Part shown: piece by piece, positions 7,394 to 52,941 of the stretch
Numbering within the stretch: position 1 is the stretch's first letter
Layout: every line of letters starts with the position of its first letter
From: a virus
Lineage: Duplodnaviria > Heunggongvirae > Uroviricota > Caudoviricetes
Virus record (IMG/VR): IMGVR_UViG_3300028422_000701
DNA length: 64,000 nucleotides
Reading direction: 5' to 3' (one strand)
The notes under the pieces: model-generated
Database searches by the model: none
What the model saw: only the letters and a program-made list of their open reading frames with translations
Told to the model about the DNA's origin: nothing
Position numbers and translations under genes: made by a program

Positions 7394-7621
7394 GTAAATA
7401 TCACTGAGGAATCAAACCGATTTTCTTAAGGAGGTATTTATGGAGATATTAAAAAGTCTTTATGAACTAGAACTTCTTATTGGATTAGTATCAACTATTA
7501 TTTTTATTTTGTTATTTAATAAATTATCAGAACTTAATAAAAAGTTAATAGTTAAATCAATAAGGGTATTATTAAATAAAGAATAATAATATTTAACCTA
7601 TTAATAGTGAGGAGGAATAAT

Positions 7622-8566
7622 ATGAATAAATATTTAAGTTTAGTACGTTACCCAAAAGATTTAGCAATAGATGCATTAAGTAGTTTTGACGAAATTACTG
7701 TTACTGAAAAAGTAGATGGGTCTAATGCAAGTTTTAAATTGAACAAAGATGGAGAAATTAAATGCTATAGTAGAACTATGGAATTAAAAGGTGAAAACGG
7801 ATTAAATGGTTTCAAACAGTGGGTGTTAAGTAATGTTAAAAAGGAAGATTTAATTCCTAATATTATTTATTTTGGTGAGTGGTTAACAAGACACAAGGTA
7901 GTTTATCCTGAGGAATGTTATAATAAGTTTTACTTATTTGACTTATATGATGAGGTAAGAAACATTTATATAAATCCTTTTAGCGTAACTAGTGTTATTA
8001 ACTTGGTACAACAAACAGAAGGAATGAAGTTTGCTCCTTGTTTATATGCAGGAAAGAACCAACCAATTAGTTTCCTTAAAGAGTTATTAAGTGAAAGTAA
8101 ATTAAGGGAAGGTATACCTGAAGGAATAGTTATTAAGGATTACGACTATAGAAATATTCATAAAGAACTAGTAATAGTTAAGTGGCTTAATGAAGAGTTT
8201 CAAGAGTTTACACCACAAAAACAACCAAAAGTAATAAAAGAATTAACAACTGAAGAGGATATAATGAACGTTTGGTGTTTAAGCACTGTCACACAAAATA
8301 GAGTTGATAAATCAATTTTAAAATTACAGGATGACAATATACTTGAACCAAAGTTGATTATAGACCACATGAAAGACTATATTAATTTAGTAAATAAATA
8401 TGTTTATGAAGATGTAGTTAAGGAAGAATTAGAAGGATTTTTAAGTGAAAACAAAACTATTATCACTGAAGAAGAAGTTCTAAAGTGGTTAGGTAAGTTT
8501 GTAAGTTCACACGTACCAAGAATGATTAAATATTATATTGGTACATTAAACAAAGAAGGAGAATAA
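7622..8566 (+). CDS. ATP-dependent RNA ligase, Rnl2-like
   Basis: nucleotidyltransferase motif I TEKVDGSN; motif IV EGIVIKDYD; RBS gaggagg before ATG 7622. Confidence 0.6.
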   Translation: MNKYLSLVRYPKDLAIDALSSFDEITVTEKVDGSNASFKLNKDGEIKCYSRTMELKGENGLNGFKQWVLSNVKKEDLIPNIIYFGEWLTRHKVVYPEECYNKFYLFDLYDEVRNIYINPFSVTSVINLVQQTEGMKFAPCLYAGKNQPISFLKELLSESKLREGIPEGIVIKDYDYRNIHKELVIVKWLNEEFQEFTPQKQPKVIKELTTEEDIMNVWCLSTVTQNRVDKSILKLQDDNILEPKLIIDHMKDYINLVNKYVYEDVVKEELEGFLSENKTIITEEEVLKWLGKFVSSHVPRMIKYYIGTLNKEGE

Positions 8567-8997: not shown

Positions 8998-10149
8998 ATG
9001 AATAAATATCGTAAACAATTTTTAAACGAAGTACATAATGATTTTAAAGGGGTTTATAAACATTTATGTGAATTAGAAAAGGATGGGTATATTAATATAA
9101 AACAACATGATACCTATCCTAATCTTAAACTTTTTAATTATACCGACCTATGTACATTTGAAAGGAAATGGGACTACTATACACTTAATTGTAGGGGTTT
9201 AGTACTTGACACAGACAAACAAGAAATTGTAGCCCTACCTTTTTTAAAATTCTTTAATTATAATGAATTTGATTCAGAACTTTGTAAACCACAAAATGAC
9301 AATTATGAAGTTTATGAAAAAGTTGATGGTAGTTTAGGTATTGGTTTTTGGTATAATGATAAGGTAATGTGGGCAACACGTGGTAGTTTCACAAGTACCC
9401 AAGCAATCAAAGCACAAGAAATGTGGGACAAAGAAGAACGTGATTACTGTGGTTACGGCTCTACTTTACTTGCAGAAATTGTATACCCTGAGAATAGAAT
9501 TATTATTGACTATGGTAAGTACGAGGGTTTAAAACTATTACAACAAATAGATAATAAAACAGGAAATGAATGCAGTTACGAAAGGTTATTAGAACTTAGA
9601 GATTATACTAACATTGACATAGCTAACAAAGAAGAAATAAACAGTATTGAACAACTTATTGAAAATATAAATAAATATAAAGGTACTGAAAGGGAAGGTT
9701 ATGTTTTAAAGTTTAAAGATTGTACTAGGTTAAAAATAAAGAACAAAGAATACTTAAATATTAATAGATTGGTATTTGGTATTAGTGATAGAAGTTTAAC
9801 CGAAAACTGGAGAGATGGTAAAGCTGAAGACTATTTAAGCTTAATACCTGAAGAGTTTACCGAGAGTATAAAAGAAAAGTTTCAGTTACTTGACAGTGCC
9901 TTATTATATTGGAAACTAGAAGTAGCAAGTGCAGTTAGGTTTATAAATCACTTTCATATTGAAAGAAAAAATGTACAAAAAGAATTAAGGACAATGTTTG
10001 ACCCAATAACTATTAATTGTGTGTTTGAACATTTTAAATGGCAAGAAACTTGTAATACAGTTTACACATATCCCTTACAAGATGCAGTTAACAAACTGTT
10101 AAGGGAACATATATATCGTAACTATAGAGAATATATTAAGGGGGAATAA
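8998..10149 (+). CDS. ATP-dependent RNA ligase, T4 Rnl1-like
   Basis: motif I EKVDGSLG (T4 RnlA has KEDGSL); motif IV EGYVLKF; motif V LKIKNKEY. Confidence 0.55.
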   Translation: MNKYRKQFLNEVHNDFKGVYKHLCELEKDGYINIKQHDTYPNLKLFNYTDLCTFERKWDYYTLNCRGLVLDTDKQEIVALPFLKFFNYNEFDSELCKPQNDNYEVYEKVDGSLGIGFWYNDKVMWATRGSFTSTQAIKAQEMWDKEERDYCGYGSTLLAEIVYPENRIIIDYGKYEGLKLLQQIDNKTGNECSYERLLELRDYTNIDIANKEEINSIEQLIENINKYKGTEREGYVLKFKDCTRLKIKNKEYLNINRLVFGISDRSLTENWRDGKAEDYLSLIPEEFTESIKEKFQLLDSALLYWKLEVASAVRFINHFHIERKNVQKELRTMFDPITINCVFEHFKWQETCNTVYTYPLQDAVNKLLREHIYRNYREYIKGE

Positions 10150-13931: not shown

Positions 13932-14882
13932 ATGAGTAAAGTAATAATGATGGTAGGGTTGCCTGGAAGTGGCAAAACAACATTTGCAAAAAATGTTTTA
14001 ATGAAAAAAGATAATTATATATATTTAAGTAGTGATGATTTACGTGTAGAATTATTTGGGTTTGAATACCAAACACGTAATGATGAATTATTTAAGGAAT
14101 TAGGTAGAAGATTAAAAGCTGCTATCGTTAATAAGCAAAATGTAATATATGATGCCACTAATATAAATAGAAAAAGAAGAATGGGGTTAATAAGAAATAT
14201 AAAACAATTAGATCCTAATGGTGAAGTTGAAGCATATTGTTTATGTATACCTTATGAATTTATACTTAATAGAAATTTAGTTAGAGAAGAACGTCATATA
14301 CCTGAAGATAAATTAGAACAAATGTATAGAGGTTTTAATGTACCTATAATGTCAGAGGGATTTAGTGATATTACGTTGTTAACTGTTACTGATACAATAA
14401 CTGCAAATGTGTTTAAAGGTTTTGTAGCGGAAACACAAGAAGGACGTTTACATTTAGACTTATTACCTTATTACAATGAATTAAAGGATTATGATCAAAA
14501 GAGTATTTATCATGATTTTACACTAGACAAACATATTGAAAATGTGTTTAATAGAACGTGTGAAATTAAAAATGTAAACGGTGCTTTATGTTTAGCAGCT
14601 GCTTTACATGATATTGGTAAACCTGACTGTTGCACTGTAAAGGAAGATGGTATACACCACGGTTTTGCAGGACATGAAAATGTAAGTGGGTATAAAGCAG
14701 CTATGTTATTAGGTAGATGCGATATATTAAGTAAAGAAACTAAAGATTTAGTTTTAACTATAATTAATTTACATATGATGATTAAAAATAGTGAAATTTC
14801 AGATGACACATTACTTGAATATTGTGGTAGTGAGGAATACCTAAACTATTTAAAAATGTTTAATAATTGTGACCAAAATTAA
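13932..14882 (+). CDS. P-loop polynucleotide kinase-like N-domain fused to HD phosphohydrolase domain (RNA-repair Pnkp-like)
   Basis: Walker A MVGLPGSGKTTFAKN; HD motif AALHDIGKP...HHGFAGHE. Confidence 0.55.
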   Translation: MSKVIMMVGLPGSGKTTFAKNVLMKKDNYIYLSSDDLRVELFGFEYQTRNDELFKELGRRLKAAIVNKQNVIYDATNINRKRRMGLIRNIKQLDPNGEVEAYCLCIPYEFILNRNLVREERHIPEDKLEQMYRGFNVPIMSEGFSDITLLTVTDTITANVFKGFVAETQEGRLHLDLLPYYNELKDYDQKSIYHDFTLDKHIENVFNRTCEIKNVNGALCLAAALHDIGKPDCCTVKEDGIHHGFAGHENVSGYKAAMLLGRCDILSKETKDLVLTIINLHMMIKNSEISDDTLLEYCGSEEYLNYLKMFNNCDQN

Positions 14883-14909
14883 AAAAGTTTAAAAATTTCA
14901 CAAAAAAGT

Positions 14910-14938
14910 ATTTACAAATCAGATCTTATATGTTATAA
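14910..14938 (+). promoter_or_regulatory. strong promoter TTTACA-N17-TATAAT (TG-extended) at the head of the 1-kb ORF-free region
   Basis: tttaca 14910-14915; tgttataat 14930-14938. Confidence 0.55.
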
Positions 14939-14944
14939 TATATA

Positions 14945-15855
14945 CATAAAGTTAATTAAGAGGAAAAAATGTATAAGCAAGCATTTATTAACTTTATACT
15001 GTATAAGCGCAAAAAGACCCCTGTTTTATAAACGTTACCTTTACAGGTAGCGCAAGAAATATAATTATTTTGATAATAATCGTATTTCTTGCAGTACTTG
15101 TAAAAGTACTATTTAGGTACAACCAGCAACAACATAGTAATTAACGATGGTTAATATTTGTCTTTATATCTTTACGATATCAGGACATATCGACACTGTG
15201 TAAAAGTAATTTTACACTTGTCAAAAGCATAAAGAGACTACGGTTTCTTTGTACATTTAAAACGTACCTAGCTATACATATACAAAACTTTAGATACATA
15301 CAGCAATTAAAAATAAAAAAAGAAAATGCCGAAATTTTTCAAAAATGTATCTAGTTAAGTTTAGTTTACTCAAATGTTGATTAGGGTCGATATGGGATTA
15401 AATGCTAGACTTAAAGACAACACTACCTTCGAATGAACTTAATACAAAGGCAAAGTTAATTCTTTGCTTCATGGGCATAATGTCTACTTAACTTGTAAAA
15501 ATGTACCCCAGCACCAGAGCCAAGTAATTGCGGTACATAGGTAGATTAACGAAGTATACATTAGTTAATGATAACAATAGTAATTTGAATTTTCCGGGAA
15601 TTCGAAAGTTTGGGAAACGGTTATTGTTTAAAGTTATACCCATGAAGGAAAGAATTAATTTCCAAAATTAGATACTTACAGCAACTTAAAAATTAGGTCG
15701 CCAAAACACGTATTTGACTAAATACACGTATCTAGATAGTTAAAAAGTATATAATTAGATTCTCACAGCAAACCAAAATAAAGGAAGAATTTGTAAATCT
15801 TAACCAAAAGAATCTAGCATTATATAAATAACTACCTACGGGTAGTTTTCTTTTC
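14945..15855 (+). ncRNA. candidate structured non-coding RNA locus (possible Y-RNA-like partner of the downstream Ro60-like gene)
   Basis: no ORF of 60 aa or more in about 1 kb; promoter at 5' end, hairpin plus T-run at 15831-15855; two perfect 7-bp hairpins with GTAA loops at 15093-15110 and 15199-15216. Confidence 0.3.
15831..15855 (+). terminator. rho-independent terminator
   Basis: aactacc-tacg-ggtagtt hairpin followed by ttcttttc. Confidence 0.5.
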
Positions 15856-15876
15856 AAATAAAAGGAGGAATAAATT

Positions 15877-17412
15877 ATGAATTTTGACAAAGCATTACAA
15901 GAAGAAACAAACGTAGCATTCACTGAAAATGGTGGAGCTAGTAACCTAAGTACGCTTGACAAATGTTTAGACCTGTTTGCACGTTGTGGTAGTATGAGAT
16001 CTGCAAAAGAACAAGATATTATTGAACTTGTAGATAGAGCATATGGTCAAAACAAACAACTTACTTTACTAATTTTATTTTACAACTGTGATATTAAAGA
16101 AGGTTTAGGTGAAAGACGTTTTACACAGATAGCACTTAAATACCTTGCAAACAAAGACCCTAATACGCTTACAAAAGTAGCTAGTTTACTACCTACATAT
16201 AACCGTTGGGACTTAATGTATTGTTTCGTTGGTACACAATTACAAAAAACAGTATTTGGTATAATGAAAGAACAATATGTTTCAGATTTGGACGCTTTAC
16301 AAAAAGATTCTGAAGCCAACATAAGTTTGATTGGTAAGTGGTTAAAAAGTGAAAATACTGAAAGTAAAATATCTCGTAAACTTGCACGTTTAACTATAGA
16401 AGAATTTGGGGTAACTGAAAGACAATATAGAAAAGCATTAGTAACTTTACGTAAAAGAATTAAGATTGTAGAACACAACTTAGTTAATAAAGAATACGCA
16501 AGTATTGATTATGATAAAATACCAGCCAAGGCTCTTATGAAGTATATTAAGGCATTTTATCGTAACGACGAAGCTAAGATAAAGGCTTACTTTGATAGTA
16601 TTGAACGTGGAGAAAAAGAAATTAAAGTTACAGGTATTTACCCACATGATATTTTATATCAAGCAACAGGTGGTGTAACTTGTGGAAATAGTTATTTAAA
16701 ACCTAGAAAAAGTGTTCCAAACCAAAACTACTATAATGAATTATGGAAAAACCAAAAAGATTATATGAAAGAAGATGATCTTACTATGGTTGTAGCTGAC
16801 ACTAGTGCCAGCATGACATCTCCAATTAGTATTAATTCGAATGTTTCAGCATTAGATGTTGCTATGGCATTGGGTATTTATTGTAGTGAAAGATTAAAAG
16901 GACAATACACTAACAAAATGATTACGTTTAGTTCAAGACCTAGTTATGTAACACTAACAGGTGAAGATTTACTAAGTAAACTTAGATGTGTTCCTAGTAT
17001 TGTAGATAACACTAATCTTGTAGCTGTATTTAAACTTTTACTTGACACTGCTAAAAGTTATAACATAGACGAAAAGGAATTTCCTAAAAAGTTACTTATT
17101 ATAAGTGACATGGAATTTGATGCGTCTACCGAAACACGTTATGGTAATAAAAGAACTACTGTGTTTAGAGACATAAAAAATATGTTTGATGGTACAGGGT
17201 ACAAAATGCCACAAATAGTGTTCTGGAATGTTAATAGTAGAAATACACAATTTCCTATAACTGTAAATGACGAAGGGGCAGTACTTATAAGTGGGTATAG
17301 TCCAGTAGCATTAAAGGCAGTATATGAAAGTGAAATATTTACTCCTGTTGATGTTATGATAAAAGCAGTTACAGCACCACGTTACTACCAAGTAATAGAA
17401 AAGTTAAAGTAA
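15877..17412 (+). CDS. Ro60-like protein (TROVE-like N-region plus C-terminal vWA domain with MIDAS)
   Basis: 511 aa; C-terminal vWA with DTSASM (DxSxS) MIDAS motif; N-terminal helical repeat region. Confidence 0.5.
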   Translation: MNFDKALQEETNVAFTENGGASNLSTLDKCLDLFARCGSMRSAKEQDIIELVDRAYGQNKQLTLLILFYNCDIKEGLGERRFTQIALKYLANKDPNTLTKVASLLPTYNRWDLMYCFVGTQLQKTVFGIMKEQYVSDLDALQKDSEANISLIGKWLKSENTESKISRKLARLTIEEFGVTERQYRKALVTLRKRIKIVEHNLVNKEYASIDYDKIPAKALMKYIKAFYRNDEAKIKAYFDSIERGEKEIKVTGIYPHDILYQATGGVTCGNSYLKPRKSVPNQNYYNELWKNQKDYMKEDDLTMVVADTSASMTSPISINSNVSALDVAMALGIYCSERLKGQYTNKMITFSSRPSYVTLTGEDLLSKLRCVPSIVDNTNLVAVFKLLLDTAKSYNIDEKEFPKKLLIISDMEFDASTETRYGNKRTTVFRDIKNMFDGTGYKMPQIVFWNVNSRNTQFPITVNDEGAVLISGYSPVALKAVYESEIFTPVDVMIKAVTAPRYYQVIEKLK

Positions 17413-17417
17413 ATAAA

Positions 17418-17441
17418 ACTCACATAATGTGAGTTTTTTTG
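17418..17441 (+). terminator. rho-independent terminator
   Basis: actcacat/atgtgagt hairpin followed by T7. Confidence 0.6.
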
Positions 17442-17491
17442 TTTACTTTTAAGTAAAAATATGGTATAATATATACATAAGGAGAGTTAAT

Positions 17492-17917
17492 ATGGAAAAT
17501 AATGTAATAGACTCATTTAGTGGTGAGTATGAATTTTTAAGTAATTTTTATGTTAGAGAAATGACCTTTAGAGGTTTAAAATGTACAAGTTCAGAATCGG
17601 CATTTCAGGCTATGAAAACAACCAACTTAGAACAAAGGAAAGAAATTGCTGCTGCTTTACCTTCAAGATCTAAAAGACTTGGTAGAAAAGTACAACTAAG
17701 AAATGATTGGGATTATATAAAAACAAATGTTATGTATGAAATAGTTTTGGCTAAGTTTACACAACATCCTGATTTAAAACAAAAGTTATTAGACACAGGT
17801 GATGCTAAGTTAGTTGAAGGTAATACTTGGGGAGACCAATTTTGGGGTGTTTGCGACGGTGTAGGACAAAATGAACTCGGTAAAATATTAATGTGGGTGA
17901 GGTTTGAATTATCATGA
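17492..17917 (+). CDS. NADAR (YbiA/DUF1768) domain protein
   Basis: FLSNFY...SSESAFQAMK signature of the NADAR fold. Confidence 0.6.
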   Translation: MENNVIDSFSGEYEFLSNFYVREMTFRGLKCTSSESAFQAMKTTNLEQRKEIAAALPSRSKRLGRKVQLRNDWDYIKTNVMYEIVLAKFTQHPDLKQKLLDTGDAKLVEGNTWGDQFWGVCDGVGQNELGKILMWVRFELS

Positions 17918-19521: not shown

Positions 19522-19541
19522 AAAGAATAAAGGTGGTAAAA

Positions 19542-20711
19542 ATGAATGATGCAATAAGTGTAATTACCAAATTAAAAGAAAAAGGTTTTGAAGCCTATTT
19601 AGTAGGTGGGTGTGTAAGAGATTACATACTTGATAAAGTCCCAAATGATTATGATATTTGTACTAATGCTTCACCTAGTGACATGATGCGAATATTTAAT
19701 TATGAACTTACAAATGGAATTGAATATGGTTGTGTAACAATACTTGAAGGTAGTTCTAAAATACAGGTTACTACATACAGAACTGAACAATACAATGGTG
19801 TTAATAGGTCACCTAGTGTTAGGTATAGTAGAGATGTTAAAGAAGATGTAATTCGTCGTGACTTTACAATTAATGGTTTGTTACAAGATGAAAACTTAAA
19901 TATTATAGACTATGTAGGTGGTGTACACGATTTAGTGTATGAAACAATTAAGTTTGTAGGTGACCCAAGAGAAAGAATTATGGAAGATCCTTTAAGAATA
20001 CTACGAGCAATAAGATTTAGTTGTACCCTTAATTTCACTATCGATCCAGACCATTTTATCATAATGAAAGAATTAAGAAATGAATTAAGTAGAGTAAGTG
20101 CTGAAAGGATACAATATGAATTAAATAAGATGTTTAGTTGTAACAATGTTAAACGTGCTATTTATTTATTAAAGGTACTTGGTTATGATTTTTATGGTTT
20201 ACCTATAAAGGACTGTTTTAACTATGTTACTAATGGAGATTACTTAATGCAACTTGCACATATAAATCATAGTTATTTATATAAAGTAAGTGACGTACTA
20301 AATAGTTTGAAATATACAAAAAGTGAAATTGCTATTGTAATTATGTACATTATGTGTTATAATAATATTGTTAATTCCAGTAACTTGGATGTAACCATAA
20401 AGGAAATAATTAATGAATATGGGGAAACTAATTTTTTAAAGGTTTGCGAATATATACGTAATTGTAATCAACCATTATATATAAATGTTTACTTTAGATA
20501 CAAAAATATTTTAAACAGAAAAGAAGCTTGTACTATTAAGGATTTAAAAATAAATGGGGAAGATTTAATTAAGCTTGATGTACCTGAACACAAACGTGCT
20601 AGGGTATTAAATTATTGTTTAGAAACAATACACGAGTTTCCAGTATTAAATACAAAACCAATGTTAAAAAGTATTATAAAAGACTTTTTACAAGAAGATT
20701 ATTTTGAATAA
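19542..20711 (+). CDS. cca: tRNA nucleotidyltransferase (CCA-adding enzyme)
   Basis: LVGGCVRDYIL and DYDICT head-domain motifs; ATG 19542 after aaggtgg RBS. Confidence 0.7.
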   Translation: MNDAISVITKLKEKGFEAYLVGGCVRDYILDKVPNDYDICTNASPSDMMRIFNYELTNGIEYGCVTILEGSSKIQVTTYRTEQYNGVNRSPSVRYSRDVKEDVIRRDFTINGLLQDENLNIIDYVGGVHDLVYETIKFVGDPRERIMEDPLRILRAIRFSCTLNFTIDPDHFIIMKELRNELSRVSAERIQYELNKMFSCNNVKRAIYLLKVLGYDFYGLPIKDCFNYVTNGDYLMQLAHINHSYLYKVSDVLNSLKYTKSEIAIVIMYIMCYNNIVNSSNLDVTIKEIINEYGETNFLKVCEYIRNCNQPLYINVYFRYKNILNRKEACTIKDLKINGEDLIKLDVPEHKRARVLNYCLETIHEFPVLNTKPMLKSIIKDFLQEDYFE

Positions 20712-20727
20712 TAAAGGTGGAGATTAA

Positions 20728-21528
20728 ATGAAATACTTTGTAGTAAGTGACATACACGGACATTTTAAGGAATTAAAGTATTACTTATACAAGGCAGGGT
20801 ATAGATACAAAAACCCTAAACATAAGATTATTGTATGTGGTGATATATTTGATAGGGGTAATGAGTCTTTAGAAGTACTTACCTATGTTAGAAGGTTACA
20901 ACGTAAAGATAAACTTATACTTGTAAGAGGTAACCACGAAAATTATTTTCAAATGTTCTTAGAAGGTGCAAGCATTGCATGGCATTGGTTTAATAATGGT
21001 TTTTACAAAACAGTTAATAGTTTAACAGGTTATGCAGACCATTTTAAGAGTACTATGGAATTATGGGAAAATAACCAAAGTGTTGAAGCTAATAATGTAA
21101 CTTACGATACTTACTTGAAGTATGAAAATTGGGTACGCGGTGATTTAACATCATACTACCATTGGTTATTACCTTGGTTACAACAATTACCTGATTATTA
21201 CGAAACAGAACACTATATATTTACCCACGCAGGTATTGACACAAATACTTATGATTATAGAACTCCAACTAGTAAAAGTTGGTTTGAATTACAACAAGAT
21301 GATGGAAGTTTCTTTAATAAAAGTATTTGTAATACTGAAAAAACTGTTGTTATTGGACATTTTGCAACAGACAGGTTACGTGATATGTATAATATACCTT
21401 TAACTAACACCACTAATGACATATTAGTTAGGGAAGATAAAAAGGTAATTGCTATTGATACCTGTACAATATTAACAAAAAGAATAAATGTTTTAATTAT
21501 AGAAGAAGAAGGAGAAGACAAACAATGA
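20728..21528 (+). CDS. Ser/Thr protein phosphatase-family metallophosphoesterase
   Basis: SDIHGH, GDIFDRG, GNHE motifs. Confidence 0.65.
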   Translation: MKYFVVSDIHGHFKELKYYLYKAGYRYKNPKHKIIVCGDIFDRGNESLEVLTYVRRLQRKDKLILVRGNHENYFQMFLEGASIAWHWFNNGFYKTVNSLTGYADHFKSTMELWENNQSVEANNVTYDTYLKYENWVRGDLTSYYHWLLPWLQQLPDYYETEHYIFTHAGIDTNTYDYRTPTSKSWFELQQDDGSFFNKSICNTEKTVVIGHFATDRLRDMYNIPLTNTTNDILVREDKKVIAIDTCTILTKRINVLIIEEEGEDKQ

Positions 21529-52840: not shown

Positions 52841-52941
52841 TGGTGCGGACGGGAGGGATCGAACCTCCAAACTTGTGTACTTAAAGCCTGCCTTAAAAGT
52901 CATGAACAATTAAGGGTGTATACCCATTTCACCACGACCGC
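52841..52941 (-). tRNA. long (about 100 nt) tRNA-like element
   Basis: T-arm GGAGG-TTCGATC-CCTCC, acceptor GCGGTCG/CGTCCGC (1 mismatch), CCA encoded; anticodon region does not resolve. Confidence 0.3.

Follow-up and report, generated by a model that had tools for sequence, protein, structure and literature searches.

The 64,000-nucleotide (nt) stretch of DNA analysed here (the window), from the IMG/VR virus record IMGVR_UViG_3300028422_000701 (Caudoviricetes), is a 30% G+C stretch of a large phage and contains a 994-nt gap (14883-15876) between a kinase-HD gene and a gene for a 511-residue DUF2828 protein (15877-17412). The gap holds four RNA modules, each closed by a helix and carrying a CAGCAA element, and these modules belong to a conserved, strand-specific family that is genetically linked to the gene for a product with a predicted Ro60 fold. 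The interval is probably the non-coding RNA leader of an operon, whose modules would act as Y-RNA-like partners of the DUF2828-type Ro protein, a reading drawn from the sequence, a structural model and analogy with known Ro60 systems. The results suggest that a phage version of the Ro60/Y-RNA particle is widespread and has apparently gone undescribed. Particles of this kind occur in animals, in some bacteria and in a few phages; what they do in bacteria is still being established.

Four stem-closed RNA modules and the gene downstream

The gap contains no open reading frame (ORF) of 70 or more amino acids (aa) on either strand, and no gap of this kind outside the tRNA array is larger. The ORFs that lie inside it are all shorter than 52 aa in any frame, the longest being 51, 47, 42 and 39 aa, while a 76-aa minus-strand ORF (15732-15962) merely overlaps its 3' end. 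The plus-strand RNA of 14945-15855 has a folding energy of -215 kcal/mol, compared with -157 +/- 7 kcal/mol for dinucleotide shuffles (z = -8.45), and the minus strand of the same segment gives z = -5.98. In a 150-nt sliding scan of 12-19 kb, the strongest folding falls at 15000-15300 (z = -4 to -5.3).

A repeat search identified a 16-24 nt motif, TTAG(A/G)T(A/T)C-NNN-CAGCAA, that occurs four times on the plus strand, at 15113, 15290, 15668 and 15755. The strict form of the motif, TAGATNCNNACAGCAA, has three matches in the 64 kb versus 0.1 expected, all of them in the module region. Each copy forms the 5' half of a helix, the 3' half of which lies 60-157 nt downstream and is followed by a G. 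The closing helices carry compensatory changes, reading UAGGUAC/GUACCUA in module A, UAGAUAC/GUAUCUA in modules B and C, and UAGAUUC/GAAUCUA in module D. The interval is thus a row of four paralogous RNA modules, each closed by a stem, with other structured RNA between them. In all four the closing helix has 7-9 bp, and the paired 5' and 3' ends close a large internal loop. The modules and the gene that follows them are located as listed here.

15113-15271, plus strand: module A; helix UAGGUAC (15114-15120) with GUACCUA (15264-15270), CAGCAA at 15124-15129, 3' G at 15271
15290-15354, plus strand: module B; helix UAGAUACAU (15291-15299) with AUGUAUCUA (15345-15353), CAGCAA at 15301-15306, one interior hairpin
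15668-15735, plus strand: module C; helix UAGAUAC (15669-15675) with GUAUCUA (15728-15734), CAGCAA at 15679-15684, contains the acacgtat repeat
15755-15817, plus strand: module D; helix UAGAUUCU (15756-15763) with AGAAUCUA (15809-15816), CAGCAA at 15766-15771
15877-17412, plus strand: gene for the DUF2828/DUF7788 protein of 511 aa, with a predicted Ro60-like fold (Pfam, AlphaFold2, Foldseek)

The window modules were also put to a leave-out test, using a covariance model (R2) built only from hits outside the window. This model recognises module B (41.2 bits, E = 4.2e-8), module C (37.0 bits, E = 5.5e-7) and module D (41.6 bits, E = 3.4e-8), for which the folding z-scores are -2.9, -3.1 and -1.5, respectively. 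Module A, with an interior of four hairpins that include the second of two GTAA-capped hairpins (15199-15216), folds with z = -5.9 and was scored at 17.8 bits (E = 0.057), rank 4 in the whole window. Beyond modules A-D the next match in the window has E = 1.3, with none below E = 1. The GCCGAA within the loop of module B is not conserved. Only 60 nt separate the 3' end of module D from the start of the DUF2828 gene, which is on the same strand.

The repeated motif was also considered as a phage promoter or an iteron. This identification was rejected, as the motif is found nowhere else in the 64 kb, is irregularly spaced and covaries with its downstream complement.

The amino acid sequence of the downstream protein matches DUF2828, DUF7788/vWA and, weakly, VWA_2 in Pfam, while TROVE (PF05731) is not matched. 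An AlphaFold2 model of the protein (predicted local distance difference test score, 81) predicts an architecture composed of an alpha-helical repeat ring and a C-terminal vWA domain with a MIDAS motif. The MIDAS sequence DxSxS lies at residues 308-312, and D308, S310 and S312 are invariant in 28 homologues. Comparison of the model with the PDB using Foldseek returned Ro60/TROVE structures as all of the top 11 matches, aligned at full length over 520-600 columns (E = 8.5e-10 to 7e-5) and including Xenopus and human Ro60 as well as the Ro60 of Thermus phage phiLo; the next matches are isolated vWA domains. As judged from this model, the relationship between DUF2828 and Ro60 is visible at the level of the fold only. 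A first-pass annotation, made from the DNA letters, had called the gene TROVE/vWA and Ro60-like; the vWA domain and the Ro60 fold agree with the AlphaFold and Foldseek results, but the protein is not TROVE by sequence, either in Pfam or with a PDB profile. DUF2828 'Ro-like' genes are present in at least 709 sequenced phage genomes, including Felix O1-like, Listeria P100-like, Staphylococcus, Campylobacter and Bacillus phages and cluster L mycobacteriophages, and phage annotations already name members of the family 'Ro-like RNA binding protein'.

A module family linked to DUF2828 genes

The distribution of the modules was probed in 80 IMG/VR loci (L002-L081; 729 kb in total) that encode relatives of the downstream protein. 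In most of these loci a tRNA array on the same strand surrounds or adjoins the DUF2828 gene, an arrangement to which the window is an exception, and ORF-free stretches of 400-1900 nt precede the gene in many loci. The pattern of a 7-bp helix, 2-4 nt, CAGCAA and the complement occurs 398 times on the plus strand versus 32 times on the minus strand (overlapping registers counted), and its instances are concentrated in the 500 nt before the gene. When CAGCAA was counted regardless of any helix in the 600 nt upstream of 70 genes, 169 copies were found on the gene strand (4.0 per kb) versus 4 on the other strand, and the density inside the gene is 0.4 per kb. Furthermore, 55% of the gene-strand copies upstream of the gene lie within a 7-bp helix, compared with 5% of the copies inside it.

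A first covariance model (R1), built from 75 short modules and used at a cut-off of E <= 1e-3, gave 152 matches in the 729 kb, all on the gene strand and distributed over 59 of the 80 loci. Upstream of the gene lie 129 of the 150 matches that were aligned (67 of them within 500 nt), and the other 21 are downstream. The family consensus reads N-A-G-R-C-R-C, N-N-A, CAGCAA, a U/A-rich stretch, a variable interior, an A-rich stretch, G-Y-G-Y-C-U-N and a final G. CAGCAA is 99-100% conserved in the 150 sequences, and the closing helix covaries across 75-150 family members.

Linkage has also been probed in the reverse direction, by scanning IMG/VR for AAGACACNNACAGCAA and then seeking the gene in the retrieved stretch. 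A same-strand DUF2828 gene was found for 12 of the 30 motif-plus-helix matches, compared with 2 of the 50 motif-only matches, and in the 12 linked cases the gene is mostly 100-700 nt from the module. In cultured phages, the covariance model places modules beside the DUF2828 gene in seven of the seven tested (Staphylococcus phage SEP9, Bacillus phage Tsamsa, Listeria phage LP-066, Enterococcus phage VRE9_2, Campylobacter phage Los1, Mycobacterium phage Whirlwind and Escherichia phage VpaE1), and the modules are annotated in none of the records. SEP9 and Whirlwind have modules only downstream of the gene.

The phage in the window has no close relatives above 40-41% protein identity in an IMG/VR peptide scan, an exact-protein look-up and a search of 5.8 billion proteins, and the nearest homologue of the DUF2828 gene product is approximately 40% identical. 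One further contig with the DUF2828 protein was recovered, and its sequence is identical to the window. Because the phage is without close relatives, comparative folding of the whole interval is impossible. When the interval was compared at the DNA level with 50,697 phage records, the single match was one of 87 nt in the promoter region, and searches against 81 DUF2828 loci with blastn and nhmmer gave matches only at the 5' motif of the modules and at the promoter.

Several records with modules contain further observations. In Enterococcus phage VRE9_2, a coding sequence labelled 'hypothetical protein' (L087 2862-2978; record 105836-105952) is overlapped by a CAGCAA module at 2889-2960 (E = 2e-6), and this coding sequence is probably not a gene. 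Campylobacter phage Los1 has an unannotated gap of 1272 nt upstream of DUF2828 (L088 1708-2979), with two modules at its 3' end (2804-2962). Three tandem modules of approximately 50 nt (L094 157-714) occur in a contig that IMG/VR labels as a giant-virus metagenome-assembled genome; no DUF2828 homologue is present within the 11 kb retrieved.

Relation to Y RNAs and tRNAs, and the proposed function

The known RNA families were searched in the window between 14700 and 16000, and none was found in Rfam at the gathering score or at E <= 10, the best matches being spurious microRNA and leader models. The first-pass annotation had called for a search with the Y_RNA (RF00019) and YrlA covariance models, and these gave no match in the interval even at E <= 10 and none anywhere in the window at the gathering score. 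Rfam 15 has no family for the modules: 141 kb of module-rich loci give tRNA matches only, and a search of L017 3150-4000 returned nothing at E <= 1. No tRNA is called in 14883-15876 by ARAGORN or by Rfam RF00005, and inspection by eye and with regular expressions found no T-arm or D-arm remnants in module A or in the structured element in the middle of the interval. The window modules are of the short, non-tRNA-like kind, with module A distinguished by its four-hairpin interior.

Modules in other phages display additional topologies. Of 140 short modules, 46 have an interior loop of 7 nt that bears the C-U-NNN-A-A signature of anticodon loops, which is absent in shuffled interiors, the commonest 'anticodons' in these loops being UUU, GUU, UGA, GCU, GUA and UUG. 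Long modules (90-150 nt) contain a canonical T-arm, an acceptor-like hairpin and a D-arm inside the closing helix; a canonical T-arm is present in 18 of 43 long modules versus 4 of 163 short modules. Within Rfam, one long module is matched best by YrlA, albeit weakly (14.9 bits versus a gathering score of 69). The third topology consists of eleven otherwise canonical tRNAs beside the gene that carry a hairpin and C(A/U)GCAA in the 5' strand of the anticodon stem, at the positions listed here.

L017: 3327-3443, 3540-3655 and 3754-3876
L056: 3775-3887
L060: 3328-3440
L005: 750-868, 881-995 and 3639-3766
L067: 5866-5984
L069: 3349-3466
L076: 3370-3488

These insertions are 40-60 nt long and consist of the hairpin, 2-4 nt and C(A/U)GCAA, in tRNAs such as Asn-GUU, Lys-UUU and Ile-GAU. 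At this length, the insertion is too short for a self-splicing intron.

Bacterial YrlA RNAs carry GNCGAA near the 5' end, and a permuted tRNA-like domain defines the YrlA Y RNAs (PMC4201824). Similar to YrlA with Ro60/Rsr (RF02553; Chen et al. 2014, PMC4201824), the modules lie within a few kb of a Ro-type gene on the same strand, often in several copies and in an RNA-repair setting, and they combine paired 5' and 3' ends with a short conserved single-stranded motif near the 5' end. The permuted tRNA-like domain (T-arm, acceptor-like hairpin, D-arm) is shared by long members of the CAGCAA family. In contrast to YrlA, which has GNCGAA(N)G, the modules have CAGCAA after an AGRCRC helix, the four modules of the window are without a tRNA-like domain, the YrlA model is silent on the window, and the module partner is a DUF2828/DUF7788 protein that neither Pfam nor a PDB profile recognises as TROVE. 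The Ro60-contact motif GGUCCGA / GNCGAA(N)G was not found in the 5' strand, where the equivalent position is occupied by CAGCAA. Since two defining features of YrlA were looked for and are absent, the locus is filed apart from YrlA, and it is read as a variant of the Ro60/Y-RNA system and not as a YrlA member.

In phage phiLo, the Ro60 gene is preceded by the genes of two Yrl RNAs, in both of which a 5'-3' stem is accompanied by a bulge with a protein-bound CGAA motif (PMC12135203). The phiRo60-Yrl1/Yrl2 system (PMC12135203) resembles the window locus in having a phage protein of the Ro60 fold, Y-like RNAs directly upstream and a 5'-3' stem flanking the motif bulge, and the model of the window protein has phiRo60 among its best matches in structure. 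The two systems also differ: phiRo60 is a recognisable Ro60 homologue, the phiLo RNAs use CGAA, and the window locus has four modules together with extra structured RNA. Furthermore, binding and a complex with PNPase have been demonstrated experimentally for phiLo, whereas the window locus is known from sequence and a model.

A further comparison is offered by gp130 of the Felixounavirus Bas63, which is reported to be Ro60-like and to counter the Ppl defence system (PMC11482910). This protein appears to belong to the same DUF2828-type family: in Felixounavirus VpaE1 the homologue is immediately followed by a tRNA array, the arrangement reported for gp130 in the preprint. There it was guessed that some of the neighbouring 'tRNA' genes might be Y RNAs, and no RNA partner was identified (PMC11482910). 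VpaE1 has three CAGCAA modules in the gaps of its tRNA array, one of them with a YrlA-like tRNA domain. The anti-Ppl phenotype concerns the protein alone.

The modules also resemble tRNA genes and arrays. The 7-bp closing helix followed by a single conserved nucleotide is comparable to an acceptor stem with its discriminator base, the 7-nt loops with C-U-NNN-A-A recall anticodon loops, and modules are interspersed with tRNAs in other phages. Unlike tRNAs, the short modules are without D and T arms and are missed by ARAGORN and the Rfam tRNA model, and CAGCAA is foreign to tRNA.

The first-pass annotation had proposed a Y-RNA-like non-coding RNA locus co-encoded with a phage Ro60-like protein. 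This proposal is supported by the conserved, strand-specific module family linked to DUF2828, by the permuted tRNA-like domain in longer relatives and by the predicted Ro60 fold of the protein. Sequence and comparison define the module as a 7-9 bp helix, N-A-G-R-C-R-C / G-Y-G-Y-C-U-N, followed by G. In the AT-rich phage of the window the helix reads UAGAUAC/GUAUCUA, and the invariant, single-stranded CAGCAA begins three nt past the 5' strand and opens the variable interior. In the mechanism proposed here, transcription would start at the promoter-like site (14911-14939) and proceed through modules A-D and the structured spacers, with partial read-through of the hairpin at 15830-15855 into the DUF2828 gene. 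The modules may then be excised from the precursor as RNAs of approximately 60-160 nt. The Ro60-fold protein is proposed to bind them via the helix and the CAGCAA element, a mode of binding that would parallel the recognition of (G)NCGAA at the base of Y RNAs by Ro60/Rsr. More tentatively, the interior, which in relatives is an anticodon-loop-like hairpin or a permuted tRNA-like domain, might present a tRNA-like surface that tethers or diverts enzymes acting on tRNA. Candidate targets may include repair or processing enzymes, an exoribonuclease, host anticodon nucleases and other defence factors. Such a role of the interior would fit the RNA-repair genes around the locus.

A number of points weigh against the Y-RNA-like reading. 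The conserved motif is CAGCAA and not the (G)NCGAA element contacted by Ro60/Rsr, a tRNA-like domain is absent from the window modules (no match to the tRNA or YrlA model of Rfam at E <= 10), and a profile of 28 homologues of the protein matches no Ro60 chain in the PDB at E <= 1. Module A is just marginally significant to the covariance model, and approximately 40% of the interval, comprising the small ORF, a cluster of three hairpins and the 313-nt middle element, is without comparative support. The counts of base pairs in the closing helix (columns 6/80: AU 36, UA 24, GC 14; 9/77: AU 44, GC 25; 11/75: AU 41, GC 25, UA 6) are partly circular, as the seed alignment was selected for perfect helices. 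Because the seed was chosen in this way, significance rests on the independent tests, namely strand, leave-out, reverse and helix-free CAGCAA. Finally, the upstream position of most modules is equally expected of a cis-acting leader.

A purely cis-acting leader is the main alternative to free-standing Y-RNA-like partners. In this case the DUF2828 mRNA would contain the modules as binding sites in its 5' untranslated region, used by the protein or by some other factor for autoregulation of translation, of stability or of read-through at the 15830-15855 hairpin, and they would not be trans-acting RNAs. Most matches precede the gene on its own strand (129 of 150, with 67 within 500 nt), which is consistent with this explanation, as is the layout of the window, where the sole good promoter precedes the whole array and the terminator-like hairpin lies between module D and the ribosome-binding site. 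The explanation is nevertheless fairly unlikely in our judgement, given the 21 of 150 matches that are downstream, the solely downstream modules of SEP9 and Whirlwind, the occurrence of modules in tRNA arrays kilobases away and in multiple copies, and the 18 of 30 motif-plus-helix matches with no gene in the retrieved stretch. The long forms argue in the same direction, as they contain complete tRNA-like domains, which are typical of stable processed RNAs. A trans-acting function independent of DUF2828 has been weighed as well. Free-standing tRNA-derived mini-RNAs that host anticodon nucleases or tRNA-modifying enzymes take as decoys or substrates, or that serve as processing punctuation in tRNA operons, would lie near the gene by virtue of a shared tRNA-maintenance neighbourhood. 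The anticodon-loop signature in 46 of 140 short modules, the frequent position of modules 3-4 nt past tRNA genes within arrays and the insertion of a hairpin and C(A/U)GCAA element into otherwise canonical tRNAs all favour this proposal. However, modules track the gene where no tRNA is nearby (the window, Campylobacter Los1 and SEP9), and the invariant CAGCAA and the AGRCRC helix have no tRNA counterpart and look like a dedicated protein-recognition element; we regard this origin as unlikely.

The remaining explanations would not involve a functional RNA family. An AT-rich non-coding stretch with four direct repeats and many inverted repeats could be expected of a replication origin with iterons, of a site for recombination or packaging, or of a set of operators, in each of which the repeats would work as duplex DNA. 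The repeat spacing, however, is irregular (177, 378 and 87 nt), the family is wholly strand-specific (152 versus 0 matches), the halves of the inverted repeats covary and are not conserved as half-sites, and tRNA-like domains are embedded in relatives, which together make a DNA-level element very improbable. It is scarcely credible that the interval is decayed or unrecognised coding sequence, or filler with structure arising from base composition: models from unrelated phages recognise the window modules, the folding z-scores were taken against dinucleotide-preserving shuffles, and no ORF of 52 aa or more lies inside the gap. In favour of such an origin are the 20-codon ORF with a Shine-Dalgarno sequence (14969-15031) and the missing close relatives, which leave conservation of the whole interval beyond assessment.

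Returning to the Y-RNA-like reading, the modules offer a candidate RNA partner for the orphan DUF2828 'Ro-like' family, for which none is described in the searchable literature; openly searchable literature yielded no paper on an RNA linked to DUF2828, with subscription literature outside the search. The sharp motif, the covarying helix and the three topologies make the proposal testable in cultured phages, where protein binding, key nucleotides, and the recruitment of repair enzymes or diversion of defence nucleases can be probed, and the related protein Bas63 gp130 already has an anti-defence phenotype. For annotation, the family points to dozens of RNA genes that public phage records do not list, and to at least one coding sequence in these records that is probably spurious. 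A broader and still speculative possibility is that DUF2828 and the CAGCAA modules form a large, hitherto unrecognised and phage-specific branch of the Ro60/Y-RNA world. In this scenario the helix and CAGCAA would be a portable handle for a Ro-like ring, mounted on minimal anticodon-arm mimics, on permuted tRNA-like domains or within working tRNAs, and the particle might guard or repair the phage tRNA supply, or decoy host anticodon nucleases and RNA-targeting defences.

Other features of the interval and its neighbourhood

Additional elements lie before, between and after the modules.

14911-14939, plus strand: promoter-like site of the sigma-70 type, TTTACA-17-TGtTATAAT with extended -10 (consensus match only)
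14969-15031, plus strand: small ORF of 20 codons, MYKQAFINFILYKRKKTPVL, with Shine-Dalgarno AAGAGGA at 14958-14964 and 5-nt spacing (read from the sequence)
15034-15110, plus strand: three adjacent hairpins (15034-15051, 15052-15092 and 15093-15110), the last being the first GTAA hairpin
15355-15667, plus strand: structured middle element of 313 nt between modules B and C
15830-15847, plus strand: terminator-like hairpin AACTACC-TACG-GGTAGTT (7 bp, loop UACG), then the U-rich run TTCTTTTC to 15855

The first-pass annotation had described the interval as the largest free of ORFs, and this holds for ORFs of at least 70 aa outside the tRNA array, although the 20-codon ORF lies inside. Its near-consensus promoter is present as a consensus match, with the coordinates shifted by one base to 14911-14939. 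A hairpin and T-run before the ribosome-binding site of the downstream gene are found at 15830-15855 as consensus features, and the GTAA-capped 7-bp hairpins (15093-15110 and 15199-15216) and the acacgtat repeat (15706-15713 and 15725-15732) are present as described. The comparison with shuffled controls that it named shows an interval folding far better than the shuffles (z = -8.45). The motifs it had cited, namely the GTAA hairpins, the acacgtat repeat and agcgcaaRaaa, are not the conserved and diagnostic ones; what is conserved is the repeated closing helix with CAGCAA.

The promoter-like site matches 11 of 12 consensus positions in addition to the extended -10 TG and has the top score in 13.5-18 kb, a region in which promoter-like sites are not enriched (20 found versus 27 expected). 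The 20-codon ORF follows this site directly, with 2 nt between its end and the three-hairpin cluster. It may encode a small protein or a leader peptide, or be due to chance, and its leader folds no better than shuffles (z = -0.6). The three-hairpin cluster (segment 15029-15115) has a folding z-score of -6.7, with 0 of 200 shuffles folding as well, and no relatives of it were found with blastn or nhmmer in the 81 DUF2828 loci. The middle element (z = -3.5) comprises a hairpin (15355-15414) and a long-range helix of 26/28 bp (15453-15480 with 15634-15661) enclosing approximately 150 nt; it has no Rfam or covariance-model match and no relatives among the same 81 loci. A degenerate module-like stretch is present within it, with UAGACUU-AAA-GACAAC at 15406 and AUGUCUA at 15481-15487. 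The terminator-like hairpin with its U-run (15830-15855) has a folding z-score of -4.2 and sits 8 nt 5' of the AGGAGG of the next gene (15863-15868).

Genes for RNA repair and related functions surround the locus in the window.

7607-8566: Rnl2-like RNA ligase
8998-10149: T4 Rnl1-like RNA ligase
13932-14882: AAA_33 kinase fused to an HD domain (kinase-HD), the gene 5' of the gap
17492-17917: NADAR protein
19533-20711: CCA-adding enzyme
within 19533-21528: metallophosphoesterase

The module locus lies in this tRNA/RNA-repair gene neighbourhood, which fits an RNA-repair role. The tRNA array of the window comprises 25 genes on the minus strand (48.1-54.2 kb), approximately 32 kb from the module locus and on the opposite strand, and on checking it was found to contain no modules and no CAGCAA insertions. 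One tRNA-like gene of 101 nt (52841-52941, minus strand; ARAGORN call, Rfam tRNA 38 bits) has a CAU anticodon and a long extra arm, which is unusual for a Met or Ile2 tRNA and is without the CAGCAA element. The DUF2828 and NADAR genes are separated by a terminator-like hairpin of the bidirectional kind (17415-17437) and, immediately after it, a promoter-like sequence, TTTACT-17-TGnTATAAT, at 17442-17470.

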